From Vulcanimicrobiota bacterium (GTDB lineage: Bacteria; Vulcanimicrobiota; Xenobia; Xenobiales; JADMJV01), in the NCBI GenBank assembly GCA_050250895.1, contig JBFWNU010000012.1, forward strand, positions 1 through 64,000: DNA of 64,000 nt, read 5' to 3'. Below are positions 1 through 33,153 of this stretch, one piece after another (position 1 is the stretch's first letter; each line of letters opens with the position of its first letter). A program made the translations under genes and the position numbers. The notes under the pieces were generated by a model. It was not told the DNA's origin. It made no database searches and saw only the letters and a program-made list of their open reading frames with translations.

Positions 1-2100
1 GCCCGCCGATGTGAGGCCCTTTGCCGCCACCGGAGGTTTCACGAACGTCGCCGGTCTGGCCCTGGCCACCGCCAAAGTTGCCCCGAGGTTGTCCGCCGCC
101 CTGGCCGTCGTGGCCGAGAATCCCGCTGCCGCCGAGATTCTGGTTGGCGGCCTGATAGTCGCGTCCGCCGCCGAGGTCGCCGGGCGGCCCGCCGCCTCTG
201 GTCTGGTTGGAAAACTGCTGCGTGCCGGAATCGCCGAGCTGATGCCCGCCAAGGCCTTTGCCGCCACCGGAGGTTTCGCGGGTGCCGCCGGTCCGGCCCT
301 GGCCGCCACCAAAGTCACCACGAGGACCTCCCTCGCCGATCTGTCCACCGATGTGAGGCCCTTGGCCGCCACCGGACGTTTCACGAACGTCGCCGGTCTG
401 GCCCTGGCCACCGCCAAAGTTGCCCCGAGGTTGTCCGCCGCCCTGGCCGTCGTGGCCGAGAATCCCGCTTCCGCCGAGATTCTGGTTGGCCGCCTGATAG
501 TCGCGTCCGCCGCCGAGGTCGCCGGGCGGCCCGCCGCCTCTGGTCTGGTTAGAAAACTGCTGCGTGCCGGAATCGCCGAGCTGGTGCTCACCAAGACCTT
601 TGCCGCCGCCGGAGGTCTCGCGGGTGCCGCCGGTCCGGCCCTGACCGTCGCCGATCTGCCCGCCGATGTGAGGCCCTTTGCCGCCACCGGAGGTTTCACG
701 AACGTCGCCGGTCTGGCCCTGGCCACCGCCAAAGTTGCCCCGAGGTTGTCCGCCGCCCTGGCCGTCGTGGCCGAGAATCCCGCTTCCGCCGAGATTCTGG
801 TTGGCCGCCTGATAGTCGCGTCCGCCGCCGAGGTCGCCGGGCGGCCCGCCGCCTCTGGTCTGGTTAGAAAACTGCTGCGTGCCGGAATCGCCGAGGTGGT
901 GCCCGCCAAGGCCTTTGCCGCCACCGGAGGTTTCACGAACGTCGCCCTGGCCACCGCCAAAGTTACCCCGAGGTTGTTCGCCGCCCTGGCCGTCGTGGCC
1001 GAGAATCCCGCTGCCGCCGAGATTCTGGTTGGCGGCCTGGTAGTCGCGTCCGCCGCCGAGGTCGCCGGGGGGGCCGCCGCCTCTGGTCTGGTTGGAAAAC
1101 TGCTGCGTGCCGGAATCGCCGAGCTGATGCTCACCAAGGCCTTTGCCGCCGTCGAAAGTCTCGCGGGTGCCGCCGGTCCGGCCCTGGCCACGCCCAAAGT
1201 CACCAAGCTGTCCGCCGATGTGAGGCCCTTGGCCGCCACCGGAGGTTTCACGAACGTCGCCCTGGCCACCGCCAAAGTTACCCCGAGGTTGTGCACCGCC
1301 CTGGCCGTCGTGGCCCAGAATCCCGCTTCCGCCGAGATTCTGGTTGGCGGCCTGGTAGTCGCGTCCGCCGCCGAGGTCGCCGGGGGGGCCGCCGCCTCTG
1401 GTCTGGTTAGAAAACTGCTGCGTGCCGGAATCGCCGAGCTGATGCCCGCCAAGGCCTTTGCCGCCACCCGAGGTCTCGCGGGTGCCGCCGGTCCGGCCGC
1501 CACCAAAGTCACCACGAGGACCGCCGTCGCCGATCTGCCCGCCGATGTGAGGCCCTTTACCGCCACCGGCGGTTTCACGAACGTCGCCCTGGCCGCCACC
1601 GTTACCCCGAGGTTGTCCGCCGCCCTGGCCGTCGTGGCCGAGAATCCCGCTTCCGCCGAGATTCTGGTTGGCGGCCTGATAGTCGCGTCCGCCGCCGAAG
1701 TCGCCGAGCTGATGCCCGCCGCCTCTGGTCTGGTTGGAAAACTGCTGCGTGCCGGAATCGCCGAGCTGATGCCCGCCAAGGCCTTTGCCGCCGTCGAAGG
1801 TCTCGCGATTACCGCCGGTCCGGCCCTGGCCGCCACCGGACGTTTCACGAACGTCGCCGGTCTGACCCTGGCCACCGCCAAAGTGGCCCCGAGGTTGTCC
1901 GCCGCCCTGGCTGTCGTGACCCAGAATCCCGCTTCCGCCGAGATTCTGGTTGGCCGCCTGGTAGTCTCGTCCGCCGCCGAAGTCGCCGAGCTGATGCCCG
2001 CCGCCTCTGGTCTGGTTGGAAAACTGCTGCGTGCCGGAATCGCCGAGCTGATGTTCACCAAGGCCTTTGCCACCGTCGGAGACACCACCGGTTTGGCCCT
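1..2100 (-). repeat. Coding tandem repeat, ~315-342 bp units (QGGGQPRGNFGGGQGQTGDVRETSGGGKG / HQLGDSGTQQFSNQTRGGG / DLGGGRDYQAANQNLGGSGILGHDG)
   Basis: GATGTGAGGCC recurs at about 8, 350, 665, 1217 and 1544; unit lengths are multiples of 3. Confidence 0.9.
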
Positions 2101-5100
2101 GCCTGCCCGGCAGGCTGAACTGCTCTTGGCCGGTGTGACCGCGGCCAAGTCGGCCTGAGCCGAAGTTGTCCGTGCGCCCGTCGGGTAGGCGGACATCGCC
2201 CTGGCGTCCGGTTCGGATGGCGTCGACATGTTCGCCGTGCCCGCGAGGAGTCTCAGGCTGTTCACCGCGAGTGCCGCCGGTTTGGCCAGTTTGCTGTCCA
2301 GGCTGAATCCCGTCGCCGGGAAGCGTGGCTCCGTGGCGAGGGTGCTCGCCACGAGGTGTCTCGGGACCCCGCGCATCCCCGAGTTTGCCGTCCGACCGTT
2401 GGGGACCGCCCGGCAGGCTGAACTGGTCTTGGCCGGTGTGATCGTGGCCGAATCGGCGCCCGTCGGGTAGGCGGACATCGCCCCGATGTCCGGTCCTGAC
2501 GATTTCGCCAGGTTCGCCGTGCCGAGGCCGCTCGACTCGAGGGGTCTCGCCTTGATCGCCGCCCTTTTCGAACCGACTACTACCGCGAGGAGTCTCGGGC
2601 TGTTCATCACGAGCGCCCCCGGTTTGGCCGGCTTGCTGTCCAGGCTTGGTTCCGTCGCCGGGAAGCGTGTCGCGGTGGCGAGGCTGCTCACCCGCGCCGG
2701 CCTCGGGCCCTCGAGCGCTAGCAGCTTTCCCGGGGCGAACCTCCGACTTGGGGTGCTCGGCCGTCGGGGCCTCGATCTCCGTGCGGAAGACAGCCCCGCC
2801 GGCCGTCTGTTTTGTAGGCTGAGCATCTACCTTTGGTGCGTCTGCTTTCGGGGCTTCGACTTGGGTGCCGAGGTCCGCTCGACCCACCGCCGGCCGGTCA
2901 GGTTGAACCTCTGCCCTCGGCGCCGCCGCCATCGGGGCTTCCACTTCCGTGCGGAAGACGGCGTCCCCGGCCGCCTGTTTCTCCGGCTGAACCTCTGCCC
3001 TCGGTGCCGCCGCCTTCGGGGTTTCCACTTCCGTGCGGAAGACGGCGACGCCGGCCGCCTGTTTCTCCGGCTGAACCTCTGCCCTCGGTGCCGCCGCCTT
3101 CGGGGCTTCCACTTCCGTGCGGAAGACAGCATCGCCGGCCGTCTGCTTTGCAGGCTGAGCTTCTACCTTTGGTGCCTCTGCTTTCGGGGCTTCGGCTTGG
3201 GTGCCGAGGTCCGGTCGACCCACCGCCGGCCGGTCAGGTTGAACCTCTGCCCTCGGCGCCGCCGCCTTCGGGGCTTCCACTTCCGTGCGGAAAACGGCGT
3301 CCCCGGCCGCCTGTTTCTCCGGCTGAACCTCTGCCCTCGGTGCCGCCGCCTTCGGGGCTTCCACTTCCGTGCGGAAGACGGCGTCCCCGGCCGCCTGTTT
3401 CTCCGGCTGAGCCTCTACCCTGGGCGCTTCCACCTTAGGCGGCTCCACTTCCTTGCGGAAGTCGGCCCCACCGGCCGCCTGTTGCGCAGGCTGAGCCTCT
3501 ACCCTGGGCGCTTCCACCTTAGGCGGCTCCACTTCCGTGCGGAAGACGGCGTCGCCGGCCGCCTGTTTCTCCGGCTGAACCTCTGCCCTCGGTGGCGCCG
3601 CCTTCGGGACTTCCACTTCCGTGCGGAAGACAGCATCGCCGGCCGTCTGTTTTGTAGGCTGAGCATCTACCTTTGGTGCGTCTGCTTTCGGGGCTTCGAC
3701 TTGGGTGCCGAGGTCCGCTCGACCCACCGCCGGCCGGCCAGACTGAACCTCTGTCCTCGGTGCCGCCGCCTTCGGGGTTTCCACTTCCGTGCGGAAGACG
3801 GCGTCGCCGGCCGCCTGTTTCTCCGGCTGAACCTCTGCCCTCGGTGGCGCCGCCTTCGGGACTTCCACTTCCGTGCGGAAGACAGCATCGCCGGCCGTCT
3901 GCTTTGCAGGCTGAGCTTCTACCTTTGGTGCCTCTGCTTTCGGGACTTCGACTTGGGTGCCGAGGTCCGCTCGACCCACCGCCGGCCGGTCAGGTTGAAC
4001 CTCTGCCCTCGGCGCCGCCGCCCTCGGGGCTTCCACTTCCGTGCGGACGACGGCGTCCCCGGCCGCCTGTTTCTCCGGCTGAACCTCTGCCCTCGGTGCC
4101 GCCGCCTTCGGGGCTTCCACTTCCGTGCGGAAGACGGCGTCCCCGGCCGCCTGTTTCTCCGTCTGAACCTCTGCCCTCGGCGCCGCCGCCTTCTTCAGGG
4201 CTTCCACTTCCGTGCGGAAGACGGCGTCGCCGGCCGCCTGTTGCGCAGGCTGAGCCTCTACCCTGGGCGCTTGCACCTTAGGCGGCTCCACTTCCGCGCG
4301 GAAGACGGCGTCCCCGGCCGCCTGTTTCTCCGGCTGAACCTCTGCCCTCGGTGCCGCCGCCTTCGGGGCTTCCACTTCCGCGCGCATGACGGCGTCGCTG
4401 GCGGCTTGCTTCACAGGCTGAGCCTCTACCCTGGGCGCTTCCACCTTTGGCGGCTCCACTTCCGTGCGGAAGACAGCCCCACCGGTGGATCTCTCCGCCT
4501 GAACCTCCGCCTGTGGCAATTCGCCCTTCGGGGCTTCGACTTGGGTGCCGAGGTCCGCTCGACCCACCGCCAGTCGGCCGGCCTGAACCTCTGCCGCCGG
4601 CGCCGCCGCCTTCGGGGCTTCCACTTCCGTGCGGAAGACGGCGTCACCGGCCGCCTGTTGCGCAGGCTGAGCCTCTACCCTGGGCGCTTCCACCTTTGGC
4701 GGCTCCACTTCCGTGCGGAAGACAGCCCCACCGGTGGACCTCTCCGCCTGAACCTCCGCCTGTGGCAACTCGCCCTTCGGGGCTTCGACTTGGGTGCCGA
4801 GGTCCGCTCGACCCACCGCCGGCCGCCCAGGCTGGACCTCTGCCCTCGGTGCCGCCGCCTTCGGGGCTTCCACTTCCGCGCGGAAGACGGCGTCTCCGGC
4901 CGTCTGGTTTGCAGGCTGAGCCTCTACCCTGGGCGCTTCCACCTTGGGCGGCTCCACTTCCGTGCGGAATTCGGGCGCGCGCGTCTCGGCCTGAAGTTCA
5001 GCTTTGGGCGGTACGGGCTCTTCGGCCACTACGGGAGCGGCTAGCTCGGGTCGGGGCTTCTCGGCGGGGGCGGCCTCGGCGGAGGGCGTTTCCGGGGGGG

Positions 5101-6046
5101 TGGCCCGGGCCGGAGCGGCCGGAGGGTCCGCGACGTCGGCCGTGATCAGGTCGACCGACATCGAATCGTAGGACCATTCCAGGTCGGTGGGGTCCTGGTT
5201 GGCCGGGGGTAGGGGCTGCTTGAGGGTGGGGGTGTCGACCTCGAACGTCTCGCTGGGGGTGGGGCGCCAAGCATCGGGGGCCTCCTCGAAGAGGCTGGCC
5301 GGCTCGGCCTCTTCGATCTCGGTGGCCAGATCGGCGACCCGCTGGGGACTGCTGAACTGGACGCGCTCGCGGGTGCCGACGCCTTCGATCGACTTGGCCC
5401 GGGGAGCTTCCTTTTCGTCTTCCTCGTCCTCGTCTTCTTCTCGCTCGTTACGACCCTGGCCGCCGCCTTCCGAGTCGTCATCGAAGTGCATCTCGTCGTC
5501 GAGAAAGTCGTCGATGTCCTCGAGTTCGATCTCCTCGTGGGTCTCGTGGACTTCCTTGTCTTCCTGGTCTTCCCACTCGTCGATTTCGCCGTGCTCGTCG
5601 AGGGCTTCATGATAGGCTTCGTCGGCGGCGTGGGCGCGTTCACGAGCGCGCAGTTCGCGACTCTCCTGCCAGTCTTCGGACATCTCCTGGGCCTGCTCAT
5701 GAAACTCTTCCGCCGCGTCCTCGACGGCATCTTGCTCGAGTTCTCGCTGCTGCTCGCGGACCTCGCCGGTCCAGGCTTCCGAGGCGGCTTGCCGGACCGG
5801 GACTTCCTCGGGGGCTGTATCGGGCTGGCGAGGGGCGGGCTTCTCCGCCTCTTCTCCGCCAGCGAAGCTGCGCAGGCCTTCTTCGATCTCGCTCGACCAG
5901 AGGGCCATCATCACACGGTCGGGCCTCTTGCTGGACTGATCAGGACTATCGGTAACGGGTTTTGAGGTCGGCCGCGAATTGATATTGGCGGCCTGGGTTG
6001 CCAGGCTTTGCTGCTGTCGAGCTAGATTGTTGAGTTGCCAGGTCAC
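1..6046 (-). CDS. Giant low-complexity repeat protein (>2,015 aa, 3' end outside window): acidic N-terminus, ~27 x 28-aa Pro/Ala/Glu repeats, then ~105-114-aa Gly/Gln/Arg-rich repeats
   Basis: GTG at 6046 preceded by GAGGA; reads MTWQLNNLARQQQSLATQAANINSRP... No in-frame stop in the segments I translated, and the ORF track lists no closed ORF in this frame. The + ORFs 11-2158, 2486-5044 and 5486-5965 are all its antisense frame. Confidence 0.85.
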   Translation of the reverse strand, partial: MTWQLNNLARQQQSLATQAANINSRPTSKPVTDSPDQSSKRPDRVMMALWSSEIEEGLRSFAGGEEAEKPAPRQPDTAPEEVPVRQAASEAWTGEVREQQRELEQDAVEDAAEEFHEQAQEMSEDWQESRELRARERAHAADEAYHEALDEHGEIDEWEDQEDKEVHETHEEIELEDIDDFLDDEMHFDDDSEGGGQGRNEREEDEDEEDEKEAPRAKSIEGVGTRERVQFSSPQRVADLATEIEEAEPASLFEEAPDAWRPTPSETFEVDTPTLKQPLPPANQDPTDLEWSYDSMSVDLITADVADPPAAPARATPPETPSAEAAPAEKPRPELAAPVVAEEPVPPKAELQAETRAPEFRTEVEPPKVEAPRVEAQPANQTAGDAVFRAEVEAPKAAAPRAEVQPGRPAVGRADLGTQVEAPKGELPQAEVQAERSTGGAVFRTEVEPPKVEAPRVEAQPAQQAAGDAVFRTEVEAPKAAAPAAEVQAGRLAVGRADLGTQVEAPKGELPQAEVQAERSTGGAVFRTEVEPPKVEAPRVEAQPVKQAASDAVMRAEVEAPKAAAPRAEVQPEKQAAGDAVFRAEVEPPKVQAPRVEAQPAQQAAGDAVFRTEVEALKKAAAPRAEVQTEKQAAGDAVFRTEVEAPKAAAPRAEVQPEKQAAGDAVVRTEVEAPRAAAPRAEVQPDRPAVGRADLGTQVEVPKAEAPKVEAQPAKQTAGDAVFRTEVEVPKAAPPRAEVQPEKQAAGDAVFRTEVETPKAAAPRTEVQSGRPAVGRADLGTQVEAPKADAPKVDAQPTKQTAGDAVFRTEVEVPKAAPPRAEVQPEKQAAGDAVFRTEVEPPKVEAPRVEAQPAQQAAGGADFRKEVEPPKVEAPRVEAQPEKQAAGDAVFRTEVEAPKAAAPRAEVQPEKQAAGDAVFRTEVEAPKAAAPRAEVQPDRPAVGRPDLGTQAEAPKAEAPKVEAQPAKQTAGDAVFRTEVEAPKAAAPRAEVQPEKQAAGVAVFRTEVETPKAAAPRAEVQPEKQAAGDAVFRTEVEAPMAAAPRAEVQPDRPAVGRADLGTQVEAPKADAPKVDAQPTKQTAGGAVFRTEIEAPTAEHPKSEVRPGKAASARGPEAGAGEQPRHRDTLPGDGTKPGQQAGQTGGARDEQPETPRGSSRFEKGGDQGETPRVERPRHGEPGEIVRTGHRGDVRLPDGRRFGHDHTGQDQFSLPGGPQRSDGKLGDARGPETPRGEHPRHGATLPGDGIQPGQQTGQTGGTRGEQPETPRGHGEHVDAIRTGRQGDVRLPDGRTDNFGSGRLGRGHTGQEQFSLPGRQGQTGGVSDGGKGLGEHQLGDSGTQQFSNQTRGGGHQLGDFGGGRDYQAANQNLGGSGILGHDSQGGGQPRGHFGGGQGQTGDVRETSGGGQGRTGGNRETFDGGKGLGGHQLGDSGTQQFSNQTRGGGHQLGDFGGGRDYQAANQNLGGSGILGHDGQGGGQPRGNGGGQGDVRETAGGGKGPHIGGQIGDGGPRGDFGGGRTGGTRETSGGGKGLGGHQLGDSGTQQFSNQTRGGGPPGDLGGGRDYQAANQNLGGSGILGHDGQGGAQPRGNFGGGQGDVRETSGGGQGPHIGGQLGDFGRGQGRTGGTRETFDGGKGLGEHQLGDSGTQQFSNQTRGGGPPGDLGGGRDYQAANQNLGGSGILGHDGQGGEQPRGNFGGGQGDVRETSGGGKGLGGHHLGDSGTQQFSNQTRGGGPPGDLGGGRDYQAANQNLGGSGILGHDGQGGGQPRGNFGGGQGQTGDVRETSGGGKGPHIGGQIGDGQGRTGGTRETSGGGKGLGEHQLGDSGTQQFSNQTRGGGPPGDLGGGRDYQAANQNLGGSGILGHDGQGGGQPRGNFGGGQGQTGDVRETSGGGQGPHIGGQIGEGGPRGDFGGGQGRTGGTRETSGGGKGLGGHQLGDSGTQQFSNQTRGGGPPGDLGGGRDYQAANQNLGGSGILGHDGQGGGQPRGNFGGGQGQTGDVRETSGGGKGPHIGG
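2740..5000 (-). repeat. Coding tandem repeat, 84-bp (28-aa) units, e.g. AVFRTEVEAPKAAAPRAEVQPEKQAAGD
   Basis: CCACTTCCGTGCGGAAGAC recurs at 2941, 3025, 3109 etc.; an identical block at 2801 and 3641 shows 840-bp higher-order periodicity. Confidence 0.92.
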
Positions 6047-6176
6047 CGATGAAGTCCTCGACTATCTTTTCACGCCGGTCATCGACTCCGTAAAGGTCCT
6101 TTTGTTAAATCCATTGGGGTCTTTGTGAACATTTCTTGAGCTGTCGAAGCATAGGGGTTTAGGTGGCGATTTGGGC

Positions 6177-6599
6177 TCACTGAGTGGTGTCCTCATCGGG
6201 CGGGGCCTGGGTGACCTGGAAGGGATACTTCATGATCGGGGCACCGTTGAGGTGGATTTCGACTTGATGCTCGCCAGCGGCCGGAAACTCGATTCCCTGG
6301 ATGAAATGCACCGAGAGGTAGGGCGTTTTCGGGTCTTCGAGGGTGAACGGACGGTCCCCGGTGTCGAGCAGGAGTTTGCCCTCGGGGCCCTGGATGGTGA
6401 GCCGCTGTTGAAACTCTCCCTGGCCGCCCACCCAGCCGTTGGTAATGAAAAAACCGGCGGTCTCAGGAAAGCGATAGGGGAAATGGTCGAGGGGGAGTTC
6501 GTAGAAGACGAAGACGAAGGACGGTGGTCCTTTCGTCTCGTCAAACCCCAGGCTCAACACCGAGTATTGAAGGAAAGGCTCTACGAGTTCGGGGTTCAC
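6177..6599 (-). CDS. Hypothetical beta-sandwich protein (DUF6941-like), 140 aa
   Basis: GTG at 6599 overlaps the upstream TAG; C-terminal IEFPAAGEHQVEIHLNG...YPFQV pattern. Confidence 0.65.
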   Translation of the reverse strand: MNPELVEPFLQYSVLSLGFDETKGPPSFVFVFYELPLDHFPYRFPETAGFFITNGWVGGQGEFQQRLTIQGPEGKLLLDTGDRPFTLEDPKTPYLSVHFIQGIEFPAAGEHQVEIHLNGAPIMKYPFQVTQAPPDEDTTQ

Positions 6600-7225
6600 T
6601 AGCGCTCCCTGGAAAGGTAGTTTTCTTCTGTTCGACGGGGGGCTTGACTTGACCCGCCTGGGTTGGCGACTTGACTGAGAAAAGAGCGAGCGTGGCGGGC
6701 GGCCCGATGCTGGATGGCCCGGCCCAGGGGAAGGATTAGCCAGGCCAGCCACATCCCCGGGTGGGACCAGGCATGGATGGTGAGTCGGACCTCTCCGGTG
6801 ACGATATCCTTGCTGACCTCGAAGGTCTCTTCGCCGGTCTCGGGGTGGTGCGGCAGGGTGCGATAGACAAAGCCGCTGCGCACCTGTGGTTCGCCCTCAC
6901 GGCGGGTCACTTCGATGACCCGCGAGGCAAAGAAGATGTCGAGGCCCGGTAAGAAGCGGTAGCGCAGGCCGACGGTGTCGCCGAGCTGAAGTGGCTCGCC
7001 GGCCAGCACCGGCAATCCGATCCCGGGCCCGAAGATGCGATAGCCAAAGATGGAGCGCTCTACCCGTTCGAAGGGGCCGTTGGGGACGGGAGGGCCGGGT
7101 GGCTCCTGAGCGAGTCGGACGCTCATATGGTCGCGAAAGGCCCAGTCTGGAGCCCGCAGATCGGGCAGAGAGCGGGCCTGCCAGCGGGCCAGATCGTGGG
7201 CTTGCCAGGGAAGCAGGATCTGCAT
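6599..7225 (-). CDS. DUF1990 family protein
   Basis: GFVYRTLPHHPETGEETFEV motif and IHAWSHP...W; ATG at 7225 avoids overlap with the divergent gene. Confidence 0.75.
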   Translation of the reverse strand: MQILLPWQAHDLARWQARSLPDLRAPDWAFRDHMSVRLAQEPPGPPVPNGPFERVERSIFGYRIFGPGIGLPVLAGEPLQLGDTVGLRYRFLPGLDIFFASRVIEVTRREGEPQVRSGFVYRTLPHHPETGEETFEVSKDIVTGEVRLTIHAWSHPGMWLAWLILPLGRAIQHRAARHARSFLSQVANPGGSSQAPRRTEENYLSRER

Positions 7226-7273
7226 GCCCGGGAGGTTCCCCGTGGTGGACCCGGAAGACCTCCTGGCAACGCG

Positions 7274-10200
7274 ATGCTCAACTGCCTCGAACCTGAGTGC
7301 ATAGGGTGGCACCTGCTACCTTCCGACCAGTTTTGCGCCTGGTGCGGCAGCCAGCTGGCCGAACTGTCCATGGTCTTTGAAGAGAAGGTCGGCGAAGCCT
7401 GGCATCGCCTCGAGCCTCCGCTCCTGGTGCGTGACCAGCGACCGGCCCTGCGGCTGGTCATTCGCCATGTCGGCCGCTCGGGCTCGGTCGGCTTTGACCC
7501 GGCCCGCATCGAGTGCTCGGCCAGCTGGTTCGGACTTGACCTCAGTCAGGTCAAGCAAAAGGTCCTGCGCTCGGGTGACGAGGTGACCATCCCCGTCAAT
7601 CGCCTGAAGGTTCCCGGCAAAGATGACTCGTTTCAAGAGGCGCGCATTCGCTTCGGTTCAGGCAAAGTGCAGGCATCGGTCACGGTGCTCTTTGTGCCGG
7701 CCCCGATCTTTCAGCTTGAGCTAGCCTCTGAAACCATTCTGCTGTTGCCCGACGAGACGGCCGTCATCGACGCCTCCTTGCGCATCACCCAGGGCAAGGC
7801 CGTGCTGGTGAATCCACCCAGCTTCCGAGGTCGTTGGGTGGAACTCGAGTTCGAGTCAGAGAACCTCTTTCCCCTCGAACTCGATGCCCGCGGTAAGTCG
7901 CGGCTGCCGATGCGTCTGCGAGTGCATGACGATACCGTTCAGCAGCTGCGTGAGAGTGCCTTGGGACGGCAGCAAGAGACCCTGCGTCGGGGCGGTTTGC
8001 TGAGCCTGGCCGGCATGCTTCCCAAAGTGGGAGAGCAAGAGCCACAACTGCCCGTCGAGGTAAGCTTTCTGCTCGGGCCAGAGCTGTTCGTCGAGCCCTT
8101 CCGAGAGCGTTCCCGGTTGGATGTAACGCGGGTTCGAGGACTGCAGGACGAGCAAGAGCTGATTCTCAAGATTTCTAACGGCACTCCGGGAACGCGCGGA
8201 CGGATCGAACTGGTGGTCCGCCACCTCGACGTGGAGTACGGGCGGGGCGGGACCGACTGGGTGGAGTTTTCCCCCGACGCCTTTCCCATGCAGATTGGCA
8301 GCGGTGAGTCGCGAGAGCTGAAGTTGCGGCTGCTGGGTCATCGGGTAGCCGAGCAGGACACGGCCAGGCTGGCTTTCGTCAGCAACGACCCGGCCGGACG
8401 CGACTATTTCTTGCGCCTCGAGATGCGACCGGCCGCGCCCTATCCAGGCTGGGTGGTCATCGACCTTGGCACCAGCAACACTTGTGCGGCTCTGGTCGAT
8501 GCCAACCAGGCTGCCGAGTTGGTCGAGTTCGAGCGCGAGCAGGTCGAAGCGACCAACCTGCCTTCGGTCATCTGCTATCTAGAGTTGGCCCGCCAACGCT
8601 TGTATGAGGTGGGAACGTGGGCCTGGGAGCGGTCGACCCACCCGGCCGCGGCTCGTTCGGTGGTGGTCGCGGCCAAGCGCTATCTGGGGGATGAGCACCG
8701 CTTCGAGGTGGTGCCGGTCGATGAACCGGCCGAGACGTTCGAGCTGGCCGCCGAGGATGTGGTGACCGATCTGTTGGCCTACACCCTGAAGAGCGCCACC
8801 GAAATGTTGCTCAAGCGAGACACCAGCGGCGTCGTTCTCAATCGGGTGCTCATCTGCCATCCCTCGCGCTTTTCGGTCCACCAGATCGAACAACTCAAGG
8901 CGGCCGTCATCCGGGCCCAACGCCATCTGCTTGGCCCCGACCAGGAACTGGAAGAACCCCGCACCTTGCAAGAACCGATCGGGGCGGCTCTGCATTTTCT
9001 CAATCGCTGGGAGAGCCATGCCTGGGTCCATCAGCGGAAGAATTCCGACGAGGCGGAGTATAGCTTGTTGGTCTACGACTTTGGCGGCGGAACGCTGGAT
9101 ATCACCCTCGTTCGGGTCCGCTCGCGCCGCCGCGTGCGCGACGCTTCGGGCAGCCCGGCCGCCCTGACCGAGAGTCTGGCCGACTGGGTCAGAGAACGCT
9201 GCGAAGAGTTGGCTGGACCTCGTTATCAGGTCACCTCGGAGCAGGCCGAGGCGAATGATTATCTCATCGACAAGTTCGTGGCCTCGATGGTGGCGGCGCT
9301 GGGCGGCGGCGAGACAGTGGTGGGGCTGGTCGACAACCCGCTGGTGGGCGAGAAGCTGACCCTTACCCTGGAGCGGGATGGCGAAGAGGTGGAGAAGAGC
9401 TTCGCTCGCAACCGATTGTTGGAGCGTAGCGGCGAGCTCGAGCAACTGGTCGCCCAACGGGCGGTGGCCGAGGAGCATCCTTATTCCTACACGGTAGAGC
9501 CCGAGGTGCTGGGAGCGACCGGGGACCGCTGGTTGGGCGGCGAGGATGTCACCGCCATCACCCAGCAGTTGTTGGCCGATCGCTTGTTGGCCGCCGTTCG
9601 CGAGGTCGAACCCGATTCTACCGTCGTCTTGCCGCTGGGCGAAGAGCTCGAGGCCCCCGAGATGGCCCTCACCGGTCGTCGCAACCTCAACCTGTTGCGC
9701 AACTGGGCCGAGCGCCTCAAAGTGCTGCTTTCGGAAGGGGCAGGGGAGGAGGCCATCCGGTCCACTTTTCAGAGCGTCCATTTTTGGGTCGACGGGGCCG
9801 AGCAGTTGATTCCGGGCACGGTGCTCTGGAAGCAGGCCGGCTATCCTTCTCTGGATGAGATCCAGCGAGGCATCGCGCCCCGTCTGGAAGGTAGCGTCGC
9901 CATCGTGGCCCGCCTGCTCGAGCAGCACCAGCAGGACGAGCCCGAGGTGGTTTTGCGAGTCGGCCGGGCCTCGAAGCTTCCGTTGGTAGAGCAGGTGCTG
10001 CAGAAGGCCTATCCCCGGGCGCGCCATCTGGCTCCCGAGCGGGCCAAGCAGTGCGTGGTCGAGGGGGCGGCCACCTTTCCTATCCCGGGCCACGCCGGGG
10101 GGGGCGTGCAACTTTCGCGAGGGGCACGCCGGGCCGGAGTGCGCGTGCGATTGCGGTCGAATAGCCTGGTGGCCACCACCAGTCGTCTGGGCCTGAAGGT

Positions 10201-10567
10201 CGTCGAGGGGGCTGGCGCTTACTTCCATGAGGTCATCGCGGCCGGGGTTCCCGTTCCCAGAAACGGATTGAGGGCCACTCTGCACGGTGTGGTGCTGGCC
10301 CCCGGGGAGAACTATCTGCAGATTCTCGAGAATGCCGGCTATGAGGATTCGCTGGTGGTCAATGGTGGCCCCAACCCCGACGTGGGCGTCGTGCGCCAGG
10401 CAACCGTCACGGTGCCGCAAGAGGCCGATCCCCTGGACCTCGAAGAGGTGGAGGTCGAGTTTATTCTGGGACCAGACCTGAGCCTCGAACTCGAGGTCAG
10501 GGTCCACGGGCTCGACCCCATCCGGCTAGACACCATACCCTCTTCAGAGATGGGAACGCGATACTGA
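7274..10567 (+). CDS. Non-canonical Hsp70-family protein with N-terminal Zn-ribbon and beta-sandwich (Ig-like) domains, ~1,097 aa
   Basis: CLEPEC...CAWC at the N-terminus; Hsp70 motifs IDLGTSNT, AKRYLG, EPIGAAL, YDFGGGTLD, GDRWLGGEDV, VGRASKLP, CVVEGAA. Confidence 0.88.
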   Translation: MLNCLEPECIGWHLLPSDQFCAWCGSQLAELSMVFEEKVGEAWHRLEPPLLVRDQRPALRLVIRHVGRSGSVGFDPARIECSASWFGLDLSQVKQKVLRSGDEVTIPVNRLKVPGKDDSFQEARIRFGSGKVQASVTVLFVPAPIFQLELASETILLLPDETAVIDASLRITQGKAVLVNPPSFRGRWVELEFESENLFPLELDARGKSRLPMRLRVHDDTVQQLRESALGRQQETLRRGGLLSLAGMLPKVGEQEPQLPVEVSFLLGPELFVEPFRERSRLDVTRVRGLQDEQELILKISNGTPGTRGRIELVVRHLDVEYGRGGTDWVEFSPDAFPMQIGSGESRELKLRLLGHRVAEQDTARLAFVSNDPAGRDYFLRLEMRPAAPYPGWVVIDLGTSNTCAALVDANQAAELVEFEREQVEATNLPSVICYLELARQRLYEVGTWAWERSTHPAAARSVVVAAKRYLGDEHRFEVVPVDEPAETFELAAEDVVTDLLAYTLKSATEMLLKRDTSGVVLNRVLICHPSRFSVHQIEQLKAAVIRAQRHLLGPDQELEEPRTLQEPIGAALHFLNRWESHAWVHQRKNSDEAEYSLLVYDFGGGTLDITLVRVRSRRRVRDASGSPAALTESLADWVRERCEELAGPRYQVTSEQAEANDYLIDKFVASMVAALGGGETVVGLVDNPLVGEKLTLTLERDGEEVEKSFARNRLLERSGELEQLVAQRAVAEEHPYSYTVEPEVLGATGDRWLGGEDVTAITQQLLADRLLAAVREVEPDSTVVLPLGEELEAPEMALTGRRNLNLLRNWAERLKVLLSEGAGEEAIRSTFQSVHFWVDGAEQLIPGTVLWKQAGYPSLDEIQRGIAPRLEGSVAIVARLLEQHQQDEPEVVLRVGRASKLPLVEQVLQKAYPRARHLAPERAKQCVVEGAATFPIPGHAGGGVQLSRGARRAGVRVRLRSNSLVATTSRLGLKVVEGAGAYFHEVIAAGVPVPRNGLRATLHGVVLAPGENYLQILENAGYEDSLVVNGGPNPDVGVVRQATVTVPQEADPLDLEEVEVEFILGPDLSLELEVRVHGLDPIRLDTIPSSEMGTRY

Positions 10568-11097
10568 TGCAAGAAAGACTGCAACGCCTGGAAGCAAGGG
10601 TGCTCGAGCTGGAACGGCGCCTGGCCCGACTCGAAGGCACGCCGGCACCCAGCGAAGCTGCTACCAGCCGTCTGACCGAACTGCTCGACGAATTGCTCGA
10701 GCAGGCGCCCAGCAAGTTGGCCCGGAGCATCGGCCCCACCTGTCGCGAGGCGCGCGAATTGAGCTTGCAGGATCAAAGCGATGCCCGCGAACGGCTGGCC
10801 AGCCAGCTGATTCCCGAATTGGTGGAGTTGTGCGAGAATGTGCGCCGCACCGAGTCGACCGGCGAACTCTTCTACGAGACCCTCGAGAGCCGGCTCGACG
10901 CCATCATGGCCGAGTGCGGGCTCGAGCCCATTCGTCCGGCTCGAGGCGACGGGTTCCAGACTGTTTTGCACAACGCCGTGCGGGTCGTGCGGGGCAGCGA
11001 ACGCGACAGCCGCGACACTATCGAACTATGCCTGAGCCCCGGCTTTCGCTGGAAGGGCAACCTGCTCAAGAAGGCTGAGGTCACGGTTTTTCTCTAG
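10567..11097 (+). CDS. GrpE-like nucleotide exchange factor
   Basis: Helical N-terminus, then GLEPIRP.RGDGFQTVLHNAV...CLSPGFRWKGNLLKKAEVTV, matching the GrpE beta-domain pattern; TGATG overlap with the Hsp70 gene. Confidence 0.8.
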   Translation: MQERLQRLEARVLELERRLARLEGTPAPSEAATSRLTELLDELLEQAPSKLARSIGPTCREARELSLQDQSDARERLASQLIPELVELCENVRRTESTGELFYETLESRLDAIMAECGLEPIRPARGDGFQTVLHNAVRVVRGSERDSRDTIELCLSPGFRWKGNLLKKAEVTVFL

Positions 11098-11765
11098 TCA
11101 TGGGTGGCGCGGCCGTCGCCGCTGATGGGGATGACTTCGCCCCCATAGACGGGTTTGCGACGGGTGTTGACTTCTAGAAAGGCTTTCAGGCGGGCGGCCA
11201 GTTCGCGCAGGCGCAAGTAGGGCTCGGAAGGGTAGCGAGACAGGTCAGCCGAGACCCCATGGGCCTCGAGTCCGAGCGAGCGAGCGATATAGACGGCCCG
11301 GGGCAGGTGAAAGTCCTGGGTCACCACCAGCACACTCTTCACCTCGAACACATCGCGGGCGCGCACCATCGAGTCATAGGTGTCAAAACCGGCATGGTCC
11401 ATGAAGATGTCTTCGGGCGGAACTCCCCGCTCTTCGAGGAAGAGACGCATGGCGTTCACCTCATCATAGTCTGGCCGCCCGTGGTCTCCGCTCACGAGCA
11501 ACTTGGGGACCAGACCTTGACGGTAGAGCTGCAACCCCTGGGCCAGCCGGTCACGCAGGATGCCCGAGACCTGACCATCTTCATGGACGAAGGCACCCAG
11601 AATGAGGGCCGCCTCGGCCCTGGGTGCCTGGGATGCGGCCACGATCCGGGCCGAGCCACGAGCGCTCACGTAGAGATTGACGCCCACCACACCGAGGAGG
11701 CTGGTAGCCACCAGACCGAGAGCTAGCATCAAGAGTCTCTTGAGGATTCCGCCGGGCCACTGCAT
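11094..11765 (-). CDS. sanA: SanA/YdcF (DUF218, ElyC-like) family protein
   Basis: N-terminal TM; ILGA...L.DRL...LLVSGD...YDEVNAM...DHAGFDTYDS...VTQDFHLPRA. Confidence 0.88.
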   Translation of the reverse strand: MQWPGGILKRLLMLALGLVATSLLGVVGVNLYVSARGSARIVAASQAPRAEAALILGAFVHEDGQVSGILRDRLAQGLQLYRQGLVPKLLVSGDHGRPDYDEVNAMRLFLEERGVPPEDIFMDHAGFDTYDSMVRARDVFEVKSVLVVTQDFHLPRAVYIARSLGLEAHGVSADLSRYPSEPYLRLRELAARLKAFLEVNTRRKPVYGGEVIPISGDGRATHD

Positions 11766-14700
11766 TAGCGCATGCTGGCGTCGTCGTCGTCTTCCTCTTC
11801 GATGGGGATCTCGCCCAGTTCAGCCAGGTTCAGGTCTAGAATCAGGTCCAGGCTAAACTCGCCCGAGGCCAGCTTAGCCAGCGATACCGGAATCTCGGCC
11901 AGTTTCTGCAGGTCGGTGTTGAGCAGTTCGTTGAGGTTGAGCAACGGGTCCCGCACCAGGATCAAGGTGATCGGCAACTCGCCGTACTCGGCCACATCCA
12001 GGTCGAGCACGTCGTCGGCGCTCAGATTCTCGTCCATCATCTTAGGATCTTTGGTCAGCTCGTACTTGAGATTGACCGGAATCTCGCTCATCTCGTCGAT
12101 GCCGAGGTCAAGCAGGGCATCGGCCGAGAGGTCGAGAGCCATGATGATGCGATCCGAAGCCGGGTCATAATAGAGGCTAACCTTGACGTCGCCCATCTCA
12201 CCGATGTCAAGATCGAGCAGGTCGTCGGCGCTCATATCCTCGCTGTGGTTGAGCTCCTGGTCGTAGGGACTCGGCTTTTGCAGGGTGACCTTGATGTCGC
12301 CGTATTCGTCGATGCTGATGTTGAGGATCAGCTCGGTGTTGAGGTCTTCGTCGAACAAGTTGTTGATCTGTCCGATGAAGTCGGTGGGGCTGGTCGGCGT
12401 CGGGCTCGAGTCGCCGCCGTTCGAGCCGGTGTCGGTGTCAAGATTGCCGTTAGAGCCGATGTCGTCAATGATGCCCGGATCAAGGGGCGGGTCCACGATG
12501 GGGGCCACGAACGTCAGGTCGACGCCGTTGAAGAAGACTTTCCCGGGAGTGCCGGCGCCGATGAAGACGCTGCCGACCACGCTGCCGGTGAAGGTTACCG
12601 AAGTGCCGTTGAACAGGTCTTCCGTAGTCACGGTGATGTCACCGCCGACCTGCACTTCTAAGGGGGTCTCGCCGTCGAGAGGGGTGATGACCCCGCCAGC
12701 CGTGAGAGCCACGTTAGTGCCTGCCTGGATGTAGCCTGGGCCGACCGTCAGGATGTCGCCGGTGGCGAAGAGCTGCAAAGCCGCGCCGCTGGTCATCGTG
12801 TCGACGAAGACATCGCCTTCGTTGCGGATGACCACATCGCCGTTGAGCGAGGTGGCGTAGAGGCTGGAAAGATCTCCGACGTTGCGAACCACCACGCCGG
12901 TGTTGGCCGTAGCCGTCAGCTGGTTGGTCTCGGTGTGGACGTCGATGAAGCCCAGGGGGGCGGCCATGATCACGTTGGCGGCGTAGATGGTGTTGGAAAC
13001 TTCTACGATGTTGCCGGTGCTCGCGGTCAGGTCGACTGTGCCGCTGCCGGCGTTGATGGTGTTGACCGTCAGAGTGTTGCCGGTCACCACCGTCACGTTG
13101 CCGTTCGTGGTGTTGGTGGTCAGGGTGAGCGCGTCGGCCTCATTGACCGAAAGGTTGCCGTTGGCGGTGGTCGCGTTGAGCGAGGTCAGGTTGGTGGTCA
13201 GGGTGGCATTGCCGCCGTTGGTAGCCACCGTGGCATTGTTGCCGCGCACGCTGGTGCCGACCAGGTCACCGTTGGTGGTAACCAGGACGTTGCCGGTGGT
13301 GTTGGTCGCCAGGTTCATCGAATCGGTCTCGTTGACGGTGATGTTGCCGCCCGAGGTCGCGTTGAGGGTGTTGACCGTGGTGGTCAAATTCGTGGTGGTA
13401 TTGGCGTTGGTGGTCAGCGTGTTAGCCGTGACATTGCCCGTGATGGCTCCGACCGAAGTGGTCAGGCCGGCGTTGCCGGGAGTGGTCAGGCTGTTGACCG
13501 TGAGGGGCCCACCCGTGCGCACGTCGACGGCGCCGCCAGCGTTGGCGTTGAGGGTGAGGGCGTTCGCCTCGTTGAGGGTCAGGTTGCCGCCGGCCTGGCT
13601 GTTGGCGGTAGCCACGTTGGTGACCAGGTTGGTGGAGCCGGCCGAGTTGGTGGTCAGGGTGTTGGTGACCACCGTGCCGCCGGTGATGTTGCCGCTGGTC
13701 GTGGTCAAGTTGACGCCGGTGGGGGCCGACACGCCGTTGACGGTCATGGTGCCGCCCGAGGTGACGTTGACGCTACCAACGGTGGTGTTGGCGGTCAGGT
13801 TGACGGCGTCGGTTTCGCCGATGGTGATGTTACCATTGGCGATGGCTACCAGCGTGCCGACGTTGGTCATCGCGCTGATCGAGCCGGCCGAGTTCAGGGT
13901 CAAGAAATTCGAAGTGGTGGTACCCGAGCTGGTGATGTTGCCACTGGTGGTGGTCACGCTCATGGTGGTGAAGTTGCCCAGGCTGGCCAGGTCGACCGTA
14001 TCGCCCAGCACCAGGCTGAAGTCGCCCGGGCCGGTGGCGCTGATCGAGAGGCCATCGGTCTCGTTAATGGCGATGTTCTGGCCCACCGTCACGTTCATAG
14101 TGTTGACGGTGGTGGTCAGGTTCAGGCTGTTGGCGGCATTCACGCTCAGGCTGTTGGCGACGACCGGGCCGCCGGTGACATCACCCATCGTGGTGGTCAG
14201 ACTGGCGTTGCCGGTGGTGTTCAGGCCGTTGACGTTGAGAGTGTTGCCGGCCGTGACGTTGGCCTGGCCGCTACCCAGGTTGGCCGTTAAATTCAGGCCA
14301 TCGGTCTCGTTGACGGTGAGGTTGCCGTTGGAAGTGGTGGCGACCAGGTTGGTGAGGCTGGTGTTAAGGGTGGCGTTGCCGCCGTTGGTGTTGAAAGTTC
14401 CGGTGTTGCCGGCCACGCTGGTGCCGGTCAGGTCGCCATTGGTGGTGACGGTGACATTGCCGGTAGTGTTGGTCGACAGCGTCAGCGAGTCGGTCTCGTT
14501 GAGGGTGATGTTGCCACCGGCGATAGCGTTGAGGGTGTCGACCGTGGTGTTGAGGTTGGTCGAGCCAGCCGAATTGGTGTTGACGGTCGTGCCGGTGAGT
14601 TGGCCGCCACTGATGTTGCCCGAGGTGGTGGTCAAGTTGGTGGTGCCGGTCACGTTAGTGTTGCCCAGCGTCATCGTTCCACCCGCGGTCACGTCAGCGT

Positions 14701-32082: not shown

Positions 32083-33153
32083 TTACTTTTCTGAAACATG
32101 CAGGTCTTTCAACCAGACTTGCTCGATCTCTGCGAGATCTCCACTCTCGCGCAGTTTTAACAGGGCTACATCCAATTCGAACAGCAAGGGACTGTCCTGG
32201 GTCACCGCAAAGCCGTAGTGCTGGCTGGAAAAGCGGGTCTCGGACAGCACCAGTTCCGGTTCGGGGTTCTTGAGCAGGTGATATTCCAGGGCGGGATAGT
32301 CAAACACTACGACATCCGCGTTTCCCTGGCTCACGAGCTCGATGGCTCGAGCCAGGTCGGGAGCGGTGACCAGGCGGGCTTGAAAGGCCTCGGCGGCGGC
32401 GGCCCCGGTGGTGCCCGCGATGACGGCGGCTCGCTGGCCCATCATCAACTCGGGTCGGTCAAGGGTGGCCGCATCAATGCTTCTCAGCGCCAGGGCGGTG
32501 GCGATTCCGGCCGTCAGGGTCGAAAACGACAGCGTGGCAACCAGCATCCAGATGCTGGTGAGAATGCGACCGGCCGTCGTCTTGGGCGACTTATCGCCAT
32601 ATCCCACCGTGGTCATGGTCACGATGGCGAACCACATTCCGTGCCCGATGCCGGCCGCACCCGGGGGAAACTCGTTCGAATTGGTGCTGCGTTCTACGGC
32701 CCAGACCAGCGTGCCCACGATGGCCAGCAGCGTGAAGAGAAAGGCCGTGCCCAAAATGAAGGCCCGCGAGAAGAAAGGCTTCACCCGTTGCCAGAGGCCC
32801 GACTCGCCGCGCCGCGACAAAAGCCCCAGGCTAGCCTCGAAATAGGGCTGGGTGAAGGCCACGGTTCGGGCTCGTTCGGCCGTGATGCTGATCGGGCCGA
32901 CGGCTACCGAGGCTTGATCGTTGCGAACCATTTCCAGCGCTTTGGGAACGCTCTCGGCGGGCACGAACTCATAGTCAAGCTCGGCTCGTTTGGCCAACTC
33001 TTCCCAAATGCGGATGGCCAGACCATCAGGGTGCTCGCCGGTACTGGTGATGAAAGGGGGCGACCCGGCCACTGCGACCTTGATCTTGTCGGCCAATCCA
33101 GGAGCGGACAGGGCCAGGAGAAGGACCAGCAGGTAGAGTCGAAGAGTCTTCAT
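32083..33153 (-). CDS. GluR0-like ligand-gated K+ channel (split SBP_bac_3 domain + TM-pore-TM)
   Basis: Signal peptide; ISITAERARTVAFTQPYF; WFAIVTMTTVGYGDKSPKTTAGR K+ filter; second SBP lobe (YGFAV...W). Confidence 0.9.
   Translation of the reverse strand: MKTLRLYLLVLLLALSAPGLADKIKVAVAGSPPFITSTGEHPDGLAIRIWEELAKRAELDYEFVPAESVPKALEMVRNDQASVAVGPISITAERARTVAFTQPYFEASLGLLSRRGESGLWQRVKPFFSRAFILGTAFLFTLLAIVGTLVWAVERSTNSNEFPPGAAGIGHGMWFAIVTMTTVGYGDKSPKTTAGRILTSIWMLVATLSFSTLTAGIATALALRSIDAATLDRPELMMGQRAAVIAGTTGAAAAEAFQARLVTAPDLARAIELVSQGNADVVVFDYPALEYHLLKNPEPELVLSETRFSSQHYGFAVTQDSPLLFELDVALLKLRESGDLAEIEQVWLKDLHVSEK

Follow-up and report, generated by a model that had tools for sequence, protein, structure and literature searches.

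An Hsp70 Gene with a Zinc-Ribbon/Ig-Like Front End and Its GrpE-Family Partner in a Vulcanimicrobiota Genome: Probable Chaperone Module of a Dispersed Tubulin-Like/vWA System

Introduction

DnaK begins with its ATPase domain and works with a J-protein plus GrpE. Positions 1–64,000 of contig JBFWNU010000012.1 from a Vulcanimicrobiota bacterium (assembly GCA_050250895.1; genome G000, contig C12 in our numbering), a stretch hereafter called the window, hold an Hsp70-like gene that departs from this plan, with a long front end ahead of the ATPase domain, a GrpE-like gene overlapping its stop codon and no linked J-protein gene. What does such a pair serve, and does it work alone?

The original prediction for this locus saw in the two genes an undescribed specialised chaperone or remodelling system, possibly for conflict or defence. 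Sequence comparison across related genomes leads us to a different emphasis: the pair probably forms the chaperone and remodelling module of a larger system of six components, which spans the membrane and is centred on a Tubulin_2 (FtsZl1) GTPase and a vWA membrane protein facing the periplasm. In the genome of the window, it is most likely the chaperone part of that system, relocated to a separate genome site.

Co-Conservation of the Pair

The two genes are translationally coupled and co-conserved. The Hsp70-like gene lies in an open reading frame (ORF) at 7127–10567 (+), and we took the ATG at 7274 as its start because the closest relatives align from the same methionine (MLNC/MLTC), giving a protein of 1097 amino acids (aa). 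The TGATG overlap between its stop codon and the GrpE-like start was confirmed by direct reading of the sequence.

A word-indexed search returned 15 relatives of the large protein, and an exhaustive search of 1.84 billion representatives returned 353 at E ≤ 1e-3, 155 at ≤ 1e-10 and 40 at ≤ 1e-30, many of them 900–960 aa long with the same front end. Named relatives come from Candidatus Xenobia, Blastocatellia and unclassified bacteria and are called 'Hsp70 family protein', 'hypothetical protein' or 'molecular chaperone DnaK (HSP70)'; since the genes are labelled only 'Hsp70 family protein' or 'hypothetical' in the few named records, the system is invisible to annotation pipelines. Strong Hsp70 orthologues (E ≤ 1e-50) occur in 16 of the 201 genomes of the phylum, all in one class, within which inheritance looks vertical.

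The search of genome contigs with the single large protein found no relatives. Run with a 70-sequence alignment, it keyed on the phosphate-2 motif, which is universal, and most of the loci returned were ordinary DnaK loci of archaea and bacteria, the one useful result being locus L043 from Poribacteria; L071 was rejected as a relative for its different Hsp70 architecture. Metagenomes were searched with the N-terminal region alone, as a 5-sequence alignment, and yielded loci L133–L135; the search of viral contigs found no relative.

A neighbourhood survey of homologues, proposed with the original prediction, bore out the claim that the two genes belong together and brought to light the tubulin-like operon context described in the next section. 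The GrpE-like gene lies directly downstream of the Hsp70 gene in 12 of the 17 loci examined. Two of the five misses are paralogue loci of the type found on contig C9 of the window's genome, which have no GrpE; in G030, a weak GrpE-like ORF nonetheless follows the Hsp70 gene; in G050, the GrpE-like gene is about 10 kb away on the same contig, and in G110, it is on a different contig and carries one in-frame TAG. By tblastn, the Hsp70 gene of G106 is also followed by a GrpE-like gene, and no match to the latter was found in the short loci of the g3 and g8 genomes. Genome G096 (97% complete) has neither an Hsp70 orthologue nor a GrpE-like gene that we could find; its tubulin-like and vWA genes are kept. 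Adjacency in most loci and the joint absence in G096 lead us to treat the two genes as a unit.

Tubulin-Like/vWA Operons in Relatives

The gene immediately upstream of the Hsp70 gene encodes 1079–1088 aa in G080, G076 and G090 and 1159 aa in G030, and all four proteins carry a Pfam Tubulin_2 domain (202–224 bits). A Tubulin_2 gene of about 1000–1170 aa holds the same place in metagenome loci L133–L135, the Poribacteria locus L043 has two Tubulin_2 genes at its Hsp70 gene, and coordinates show the same adjacency for paralogues in further genomes.

Three additional genes precede the tubulin-like gene in G080, G076 and G030. The first encodes a zinc-ribbon protein with a PQQ/BamB-like beta-propeller. 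The product of the second has a vWA-type DxSGS motif as well as a signal peptide, a single transmembrane helix and a cytoplasmic tail; that of the third is small and combines a signal peptide and a beta domain with several transmembrane helices. L027, L028 and L030 share one gene order, namely propeller, vWA, membrane protein, tubulin-like, Hsp70, GrpE domain, and L135 matches all six component models in that same order. In L133 and L134, five of the six models match, the small membrane protein being unmatched, and an extra gene of 417–422 aa stands ahead of the GrpE-domain protein. The Hsp70 proteins of L133–L135 are only 23–25% identical to that of the window, and their GrpE domain forms the C-terminus of a 567–854-aa protein. 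Tubulin_2 and vWA genes together in the operon of the Hsp70 gene are found in L027, L028, L030, L133 and L135; the scan for a vWA gene in the operon found the tubulin-like gene and no vWA match in L134.

A scan for the Walker-A pattern in ORFs of at least 150 aa within about 7–8 kb, covering L027, L028, L030, L034, L123, L124, L037 and window positions 1–12000, gave no candidate beside the operon genes. Against PADLOC-DB 2.0, 0 families matched the Hsp70, the GrpE-like protein and the window neighbours, and 0 matched the tubulin-like, vWA, propeller and membrane components and their paralogues.

Some operons have conspicuous neighbours. In G030 (L030 12291–18121), next after the six-gene operon come a gene for an RNase T-like exonuclease and a CRISPR-Cas locus of type I-C (Cas3, Cas5d, Csd1). 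In genus g3, two tandem BrxC/BrxD-like ATPase genes (L022 2608–5110; L023 13695–16164) lie 3–5 kb away from the Hsp70 gene, with a gene for an OPT oligopeptide transporter in between.

Dispersed Components in the Window's Genome

A search of every ORF in the window's genome with hidden Markov models (HMMs) for the six components found one orthologue of each, arranged as three gene pairs on three contigs (Table 1), so that the Hsp70 gene of the window has no Tubulin_2 or vWA gene in its own operon: these two lie on C5 and C7, respectively. Across its whole length, the C5 tubulin-like protein shares 55% identity with its G090 counterpart, whose gene directly precedes the Hsp70 gene of that genome, and the C5 protein retains the GGTG and AGGTGSG nucleotide-binding motifs.

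A partial paralogous set occupies C9:261009–271428 (L037), where the gene for a 902-aa zinc-ribbon Hsp70 overlaps a 977-aa Tubulin_2 gene, without GrpE. It is embedded in an O-antigen/polysaccharide cluster, with Wzy_C/TPR O-antigen-ligase-like, glycosyltransferase, methyltransferase and epimerase genes as neighbours.

Among the 201 genomes of the phylum, tubulin-like orthologues are present in 16, together with Hsp70 in 14, and with both Hsp70 and vWA in 12; the genomes that combine these orthologues belong to one clade. No orthologue of Hsp70, tubulin-like or vWA protein was found in the eight genomes of the sister genus g2. G096 has tubulin-like and vWA genes without Hsp70, and G056 has a tubulin-like gene of 35% identity.

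In a quick maximum-likelihood tree, midpoint-rooted and with long branches, all forms detached from the tubulin-like gene fall into one clade of eight rows (support of 98 in the Shimodaira–Hasegawa-like approximate likelihood ratio test, SH-aLRT), and the other family rows are all tubulin-linked except G088par and L136. Since the unlinked forms make up one clade and nearly all others are linked, the split-up looks derived, and one break-up event would explain the pattern.

Several observations weigh against a joint function. The partners are unlinked in the genome of the window, so that we infer their joint working from relatives and co-occurrence; related genomes are not independent samples, and the co-occurrence therefore counts as support rather than as a statistic. 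G104 and G106 have the Hsp70 and no tubulin-like match, G050 and G082 gave no vWA match with the query used, and in L136 the Hsp70 and GrpE-like genes have no tubulin-like neighbour within 7 kb. The speed and rooting of the tree search, noted above, belong here as well.

A rival reading is a self-contained two-gene chaperone that works alone in this lineage, with zinc-ribbon and Ig-like domains specific for a client outside the tubulin-like system. In its favour, none of the other components is found near the pair in the window, in G088 or in genera g3 and g6, the flanking genes vary between genera (DUF1990, OPT transporter and others), and the L136 pair agrees with this. We nevertheless judge a self-contained chaperone unlikely: the unlinked forms are a single derived clade, all 10 of the 10 unlinked-pair genomes at ≥80% completeness keep an orthologous tubulin-like gene, the two g6 genomes lacking a match to it (G104 and G106) are only 64–65% complete, and the sister genus g2 is without all the components.

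The two-gene system of the original prediction therefore stands as a dedicated, co-conserved pair and is probably not self-contained, because deeper-branching relatives carry it at the 3' end of a six-gene operon and the genome of the window keeps one orthologue of each part. That the chaperone pair is detached yet co-inherited with the operon parts argues for a functional unit and not for operon hitch-hiking.

The Hsp70 Core

Conserved residues and predicted fold describe the large protein as a catalytically intact, lidless Hsp70. In the AlphaFold2 model of the full-length protein, built on the 70-sequence alignment (mean predicted local distance difference test, pLDDT, 89.8; predicted template modelling score 0.72), the ATPase domain spans aa 393–932 and is interrupted by the insert listed in Table 1. 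The ATPase motifs are recognisable, as had been claimed: D397, G399, K468, E567, D602, G604, G605 and D609 are invariant in the 70 sequences, at least 90% of which also share T607.

In sequence, the protein has diverged strongly: its 21.8 bits only just exceed the Pfam HSP70 cut-off of 20.6, and the NCBIfam models score 32.2 bits for DnaK (cut-off 822) and 33.2 for HscA (cut-off 708), with E of about 1e-8, which is far below equivalog-level similarity to either. By structure, Foldseek aligned about 735 columns to DnaK, Hsc70 and BiP (E about 1e-22), lid-truncated constructs included, and in lid-truncated DnaK and BiP the alignment spans both the ATPase domain and the beta substrate-binding domain.

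The insert in the ATPase domain, about 115 aa long, is the most variable part of the protein and is absent from 8 of the 22 other rows of alignment A1, the same-genus orthologue included. It also holds the most hydrophobic stretch of the protein (Kyte–Doolittle 1.69 around aa 668–686).

The replacement of the DVLLLD linker and the short beta C-terminus without a lid, both noted in the original prediction, are borne out. A conserved GVQLSRG...GVRVR stretch takes the place of the linker in the alignment, where the model is of low confidence (aa 933–955). The model is all-beta from 956 to 1080, its strands lying at 956–1076, with no helix after 956, and the protein terminates at 1097, about 20 aa beyond the last strand, leaving no helical lid. 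The ATPase domain, conserved linker and beta domain together thus appear, from residues and model, to be an intact Hsp70 cycle engine.

This bears on another explanation, in which the Hsp70-like protein serves as a scaffold, structural or actin-like, and binds nucleotide without running a chaperone cycle, the GrpE-like protein being an adaptor only. Multimeric tubulin and HSP70 assemblies are suggested by Kaur et al. in the accessible part of PMC7159879, and some CoCoNuT Hsp70-like domains are predicted to be poor ATPases in the accessible part of PMC11090510. With all catalytic positions invariant in the 70 sequences, a complete beta substrate-binding domain and conserved linker retained, and a true GrpE-family partner that is kept and, in G096, lost along with the Hsp70, a mere scaffold seems very improbable.

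The Front End

The roughly 390 aa ahead of the ATPase domain resolve, in the AlphaFold2 model, into a zinc ribbon and three Ig-like domains. Each cysteine of the ribbon recurs in at least 90% of 23 aligned sequences, as expected of the Cys4 ribbon first proposed; Pfam zinc-ribbon models match the paralogues weakly. The three beta-rich blocks seen earlier in the sequence correspond to beta-sandwiches placed at about aa 31–141, 145–245 and 258–385.

A fold search of this region had been suggested with the original prediction, and its outcome is a tandem array of PapD-like/ASH/MSP-type Ig domains. A separate AlphaFold2 model of aa 1–392 (pLDDT 88.6) gave, with VIA-align, Z 9.3 against the HYDIN PapD-like domain 2e6j (root mean square deviation 2.7 Å over 102 residues), Z 8.7 against the CEP192 ASH domain 6fvi and Z 8.8 against the VAP-A MSP domain 6tqr, and Foldseek matched it to ciliary central-pair ASH proteins at E 6e-12. 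An ESM Atlas look-up of the same residues returned HYDIN/ASH Ig clusters with scores of at most 0.78, which we take as a lead only. The distant relatives L043 and L136 have a sub-threshold Pfam match to a HYDIN/VesB-like Ig domain preceding the Hsp70 part.

In eukaryotes, the ASH/PapD-like fold type marks microtubule-bound proteins of cilia and centrosomes. Divergence in the Ig domains roughly keeps pace with that in the ATPase domain, and they are not hypervariable.

An FFAT-like acidic-aromatic motif in the vWA tail was considered as a target for the MSP-like Ig domains, as the G030 protein ends in DDDYYDA. The idea was dropped, since the motif is not conserved and orthologous vWA tails carry a beta-rich domain of about 110 aa instead.

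The GrpE-Like Partner and J-Proteins

The small protein matches Pfam GrpE (PF01025) at 36.2 bits, against a cut-off of 25.8, over model positions 46–163 of 165, a match that takes in the helical bundle and the C-terminal beta domain of GrpE. The profile of 11 GrpE-like orthologues finds solved GrpE structures of Thermus (3a6m, 7.9e-8), M. tuberculosis (8gb3, 1.3e-7) and E. coli (1dkg, 0.016). It had been left possible at the outset that the small protein lacks the GrpE fold; at the sequence level, Pfam and the orthologue profile both find it there. The protein has an N-terminal heptad-like helix, a helical region and a C-terminal beta domain, and no hydrophobic segment was found in it (maximum Kyte–Doolittle 0.46).

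No DnaJ match was found among the neighbours scanned at the window locus and at homologous loci, in line with the earlier claim that a J-protein is missing from the system. Contig C1 carries two ordinary grpE-dnaK-dnaJ loci along with every one of the genome's four J-domain matches, two of which adjoin the canonical grpE-dnaK loci. A housekeeping J-protein may act in trans on this Hsp70. The position matching DnaK R167, which we take to be a J-domain contact, varies freely in the family (R/H/A/S/F/T/Q/V in the alignment), and this fits a J-less cycle.

The genome has three further atypical Hsp70-like ORFs, one at C10:154323–156113 (−) and two in tandem at C3:539190–543650 (+), all distinct from its two canonical DnaKs.

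Proposed Mechanism

In the mechanism that we propose for the chaperone module, the fused zinc-ribbon/Ig front end would dock the Hsp70 on the assembly, either at the long C-terminal region of the tubulin-like protein or at the cytoplasmic domain of the vWA protein. Docking would take over the targeting and client delivery for which DnaK depends on a J-protein. The lidless beta domain could then clamp a client segment in an ATP-dependent manner, and a dimer of the GrpE-like protein would reset the cycle through ADP release. The outcome would be controlled assembly or disassembly of a tubulin-like polymer at the membrane, under a trans-envelope receptor. The specific client and outcome are more tentative than the assignment of the pair to the system, and we put them forward as a possibility only.

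The boldest version, a bacterial Hsp70 freed of J-proteins by its fused ASH/PapD-like Ig domains, with a private GrpE, that acts as the dedicated, ATP-driven regulator of an FtsZl1 polymer anchored to a trans-envelope vWA receptor, is doubtful. If true, a prokaryotic tubulin-plus-chaperone machine would still be working with its genes scattered round the chromosome.

An envelope, membrane-remodelling or cytoskeletal role looks more likely than defence. We lean to it because there is no PADLOC match, no viral relatives were found, the Ig domains are not hypervariable, inheritance looks vertical and the paralogue sits among polysaccharide genes.

Comparison with Known Systems

With the canonical DnaK-GrpE(-DnaJ) machine, the window pair shares the two-domain Hsp70 core, the catalytic residues and the adjacent GrpE-family gene. 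The large protein differs in adding the zinc ribbon and three Ig-like domains (about 390 aa) and the variable ATPase insert, and in lacking the helical lid, the DVLLLD linker and a linked J-protein.

FtsZl1-vWA operons were described by Makarova and Koonin 2010 (PMC2875224), who proposed membrane remodelling in the part of the text accessible to us. Judged by that part, the likeness extends to a divergent tubulin/FtsZ-like GTPase with long extensions, a vWA protein with signal peptide or transmembrane segment and intact DxSxS, and other membrane proteins. The present system differs in having a dedicated Hsp70 and GrpE at the end and a zinc-ribbon beta-propeller at the start, the words Hsp70, DnaK and GrpE not occurring in PMC2875224. 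It also differs from what is accessible there in that no GTPase or kinase gene was seen here and that the genome of the window has three unlinked pairs.

In the accessible portion of Kaur, Burroughs, Iyer and Aravind 2020 (PMC7159879), tubulin and HSP70+GrpE appear as non-overlapping themes centred on a DO-GTPase and GAP1. The components shared with these GAP1-N2 DO-GTPase systems, by the same portion, are a tubulin homologue, a membrane vWA protein with an extracellular domain, HSP70, GrpE, zinc ribbons and beta-rich domains. In the relatives studied here, by contrast, tubulin-like, Hsp70 and GrpE genes stand in one operon, with no P-loop GTPase nearby. The J-domain/FNIII protein of the HSP70 theme, as it appears in that portion, is absent here, and the portion makes no mention of a fused zinc-ribbon/Ig front end on Hsp70; the words HSP70, GrpE and Tubulin are absent from two of its supplementary files.

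The locus might be read as a component of a nucleoside-triphosphate-dependent conflict or defence system of the Kaur et al. 2020 kind, in which tubulin/HSP70 assemblies serve as effectors or threshold devices against invaders. The tubulin plus extracellular vWA and HSP70 plus GrpE themes around DO-GTPases in the accessible portion of PMC7159879 speak for this, as do the CRISPR-Cas genes beside the G030 operon and the BrxC/BrxD-like genes near the g3 loci. It is put in doubt by the Walker-A scan, in which no ORF that could be a DO-GTPase was found near the operons of L027, L028, L030 and L034 or at the loci of the window's own genome, and no DnaJ-FNIII protein was seen at the scanned loci. The PADLOC result for all components, the viral-contig search, Ig divergence that tracks the ATPase domain, the polysaccharide-cluster setting of the own-genome paralogue and the apparently vertical inheritance within one class also count against it, and we consider a conflict system improbable. 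The defence role raised in the original prediction thus finds no support in PADLOC, in viral-contig relatives or in the variability of the Ig domains.

The claim that the system is undescribed holds in part. FtsZl1-vWA operons (PMC2875224) and HSP70+GrpE and tubulin themes (PMC7159879) are in print, and the exact architecture was not found in the literature: our search returned no paper on a zinc-ribbon/Ig-fused lidless Hsp70 with GrpE in a Tubulin_2 operon, and no experimental study of any FtsZl1/Tubulin_2 system. Two traits set the window apart: its pair is detached yet co-inherited, and its GrpE-like protein is short and soluble.

What FtsZl1/Tubulin_2 does has been a matter of guessing since 2010. 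An Hsp70 that dispenses with a J-protein, equipped with targeting domains and an exchange factor of its own, would give a concrete handle on FtsZl1 systems: the predicted client is the tubulin-like or the vWA protein, and the predicted activity is nucleotide-dependent control of a bacterial tubulin-like polymer. The GrpE-like partner, moreover, appears reducible to a short soluble form.

Gene Layout and Surroundings

Table 1. Positions of the Hsp70 and GrpE-family genes, their predicted domains and the three component pairs. Coordinates refer to the window unless a contig is named.
Feature	Coordinates	Strand	Basis or remark
Zinc-ribbon / three Ig-like / lidless Hsp70 gene, 1097 aa	7274..10567	+	Stop codon 10565–10567
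Cys4 zinc ribbon, aa 1–30	7274..7363	+	C4, C9, C21, C24
Three tandem PapD-like/ASH/MSP-type Ig beta-sandwiches, aa 31–142, 143–250, 251–388	7364..8437	+	AlphaFold2 and fold searches
Hsp70/actin-fold nucleotide-binding domain, aa 389–935	8438..10078	+	All catalytic positions conserved
Variable helical/beta insert of about 115 aa within the ATPase domain, aa 622–735	9137..9478	+	Alignment, AlphaFold2
Interdomain linker, aa 936–955	10079..10138	+	Low pLDDT, sequence conserved; replaces DnaK DVLLLD
Hsp70 beta substrate-binding domain without helical lid, aa 956–1097	10139..10564	+	AlphaFold2, Foldseek
GrpE-family gene, 176 aa, soluble	10567..11097	+	Start overlaps Hsp70 stop as TGATG
Propeller + vWA pair	C7:305871–308959	−	Component HMMs
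Membrane protein + tubulin-like pair	C5:261732–266073	−	Component HMMs
Hsp70 + GrpE-like pair	C12 (window)	+	Component HMMs

Upstream of the Hsp70 gene, a divergent DUF1990 gene lies at 6599–7312 (−). The same neighbour is present in G088 of the same genus (L035 7370–7954 (−)) and was not seen beside the Hsp70 gene in other genera. On the other side, the end of the GrpE-like ORF overlaps a convergent SanA/DUF218-like gene at 11094–11765 (−) by four bases (CTAG). A promoter and terminator scan of 6500–12000 gave 0 promoter-like sites and no more terminator-like sites than in shuffled sequences, and is uninformative because the genome has 65% G+C. A search of sequencing runs listed no RNA run and two DNA runs, both with small shares (0.09 and 0.05).

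The start of the contig, at 68–70% G+C, carries a 2015-aa ORF at 2–6046 (−), open at its end, opposite plus-strand ORFs at 11–2158 (715 aa) and 2486–5044 (852 aa). None of the three has a significant Pfam match or a counterpart near the Hsp70 homologues, and they were therefore rejected as members of the system.

A 6732-aa ORF at 11765–31963 (−) has an N-terminal two-partner secretion (TPS) domain and Toastrack/DUF4097-like repeats, which marks it as a giant exoprotein of the TpsA/filamentous-haemagglutinin-like kind. The ORF runs convergently to the Hsp70-GrpE pair and meets the SanA/DUF218-like gene at its 3' end, and it has no counterpart near the Hsp70 homologues. Beyond it, the gene at 32083–33153 (−) encodes a 356-aa protein with an SBP_bac_3 domain and an ion-channel pore, like a prokaryotic glutamate-receptor-type channel.

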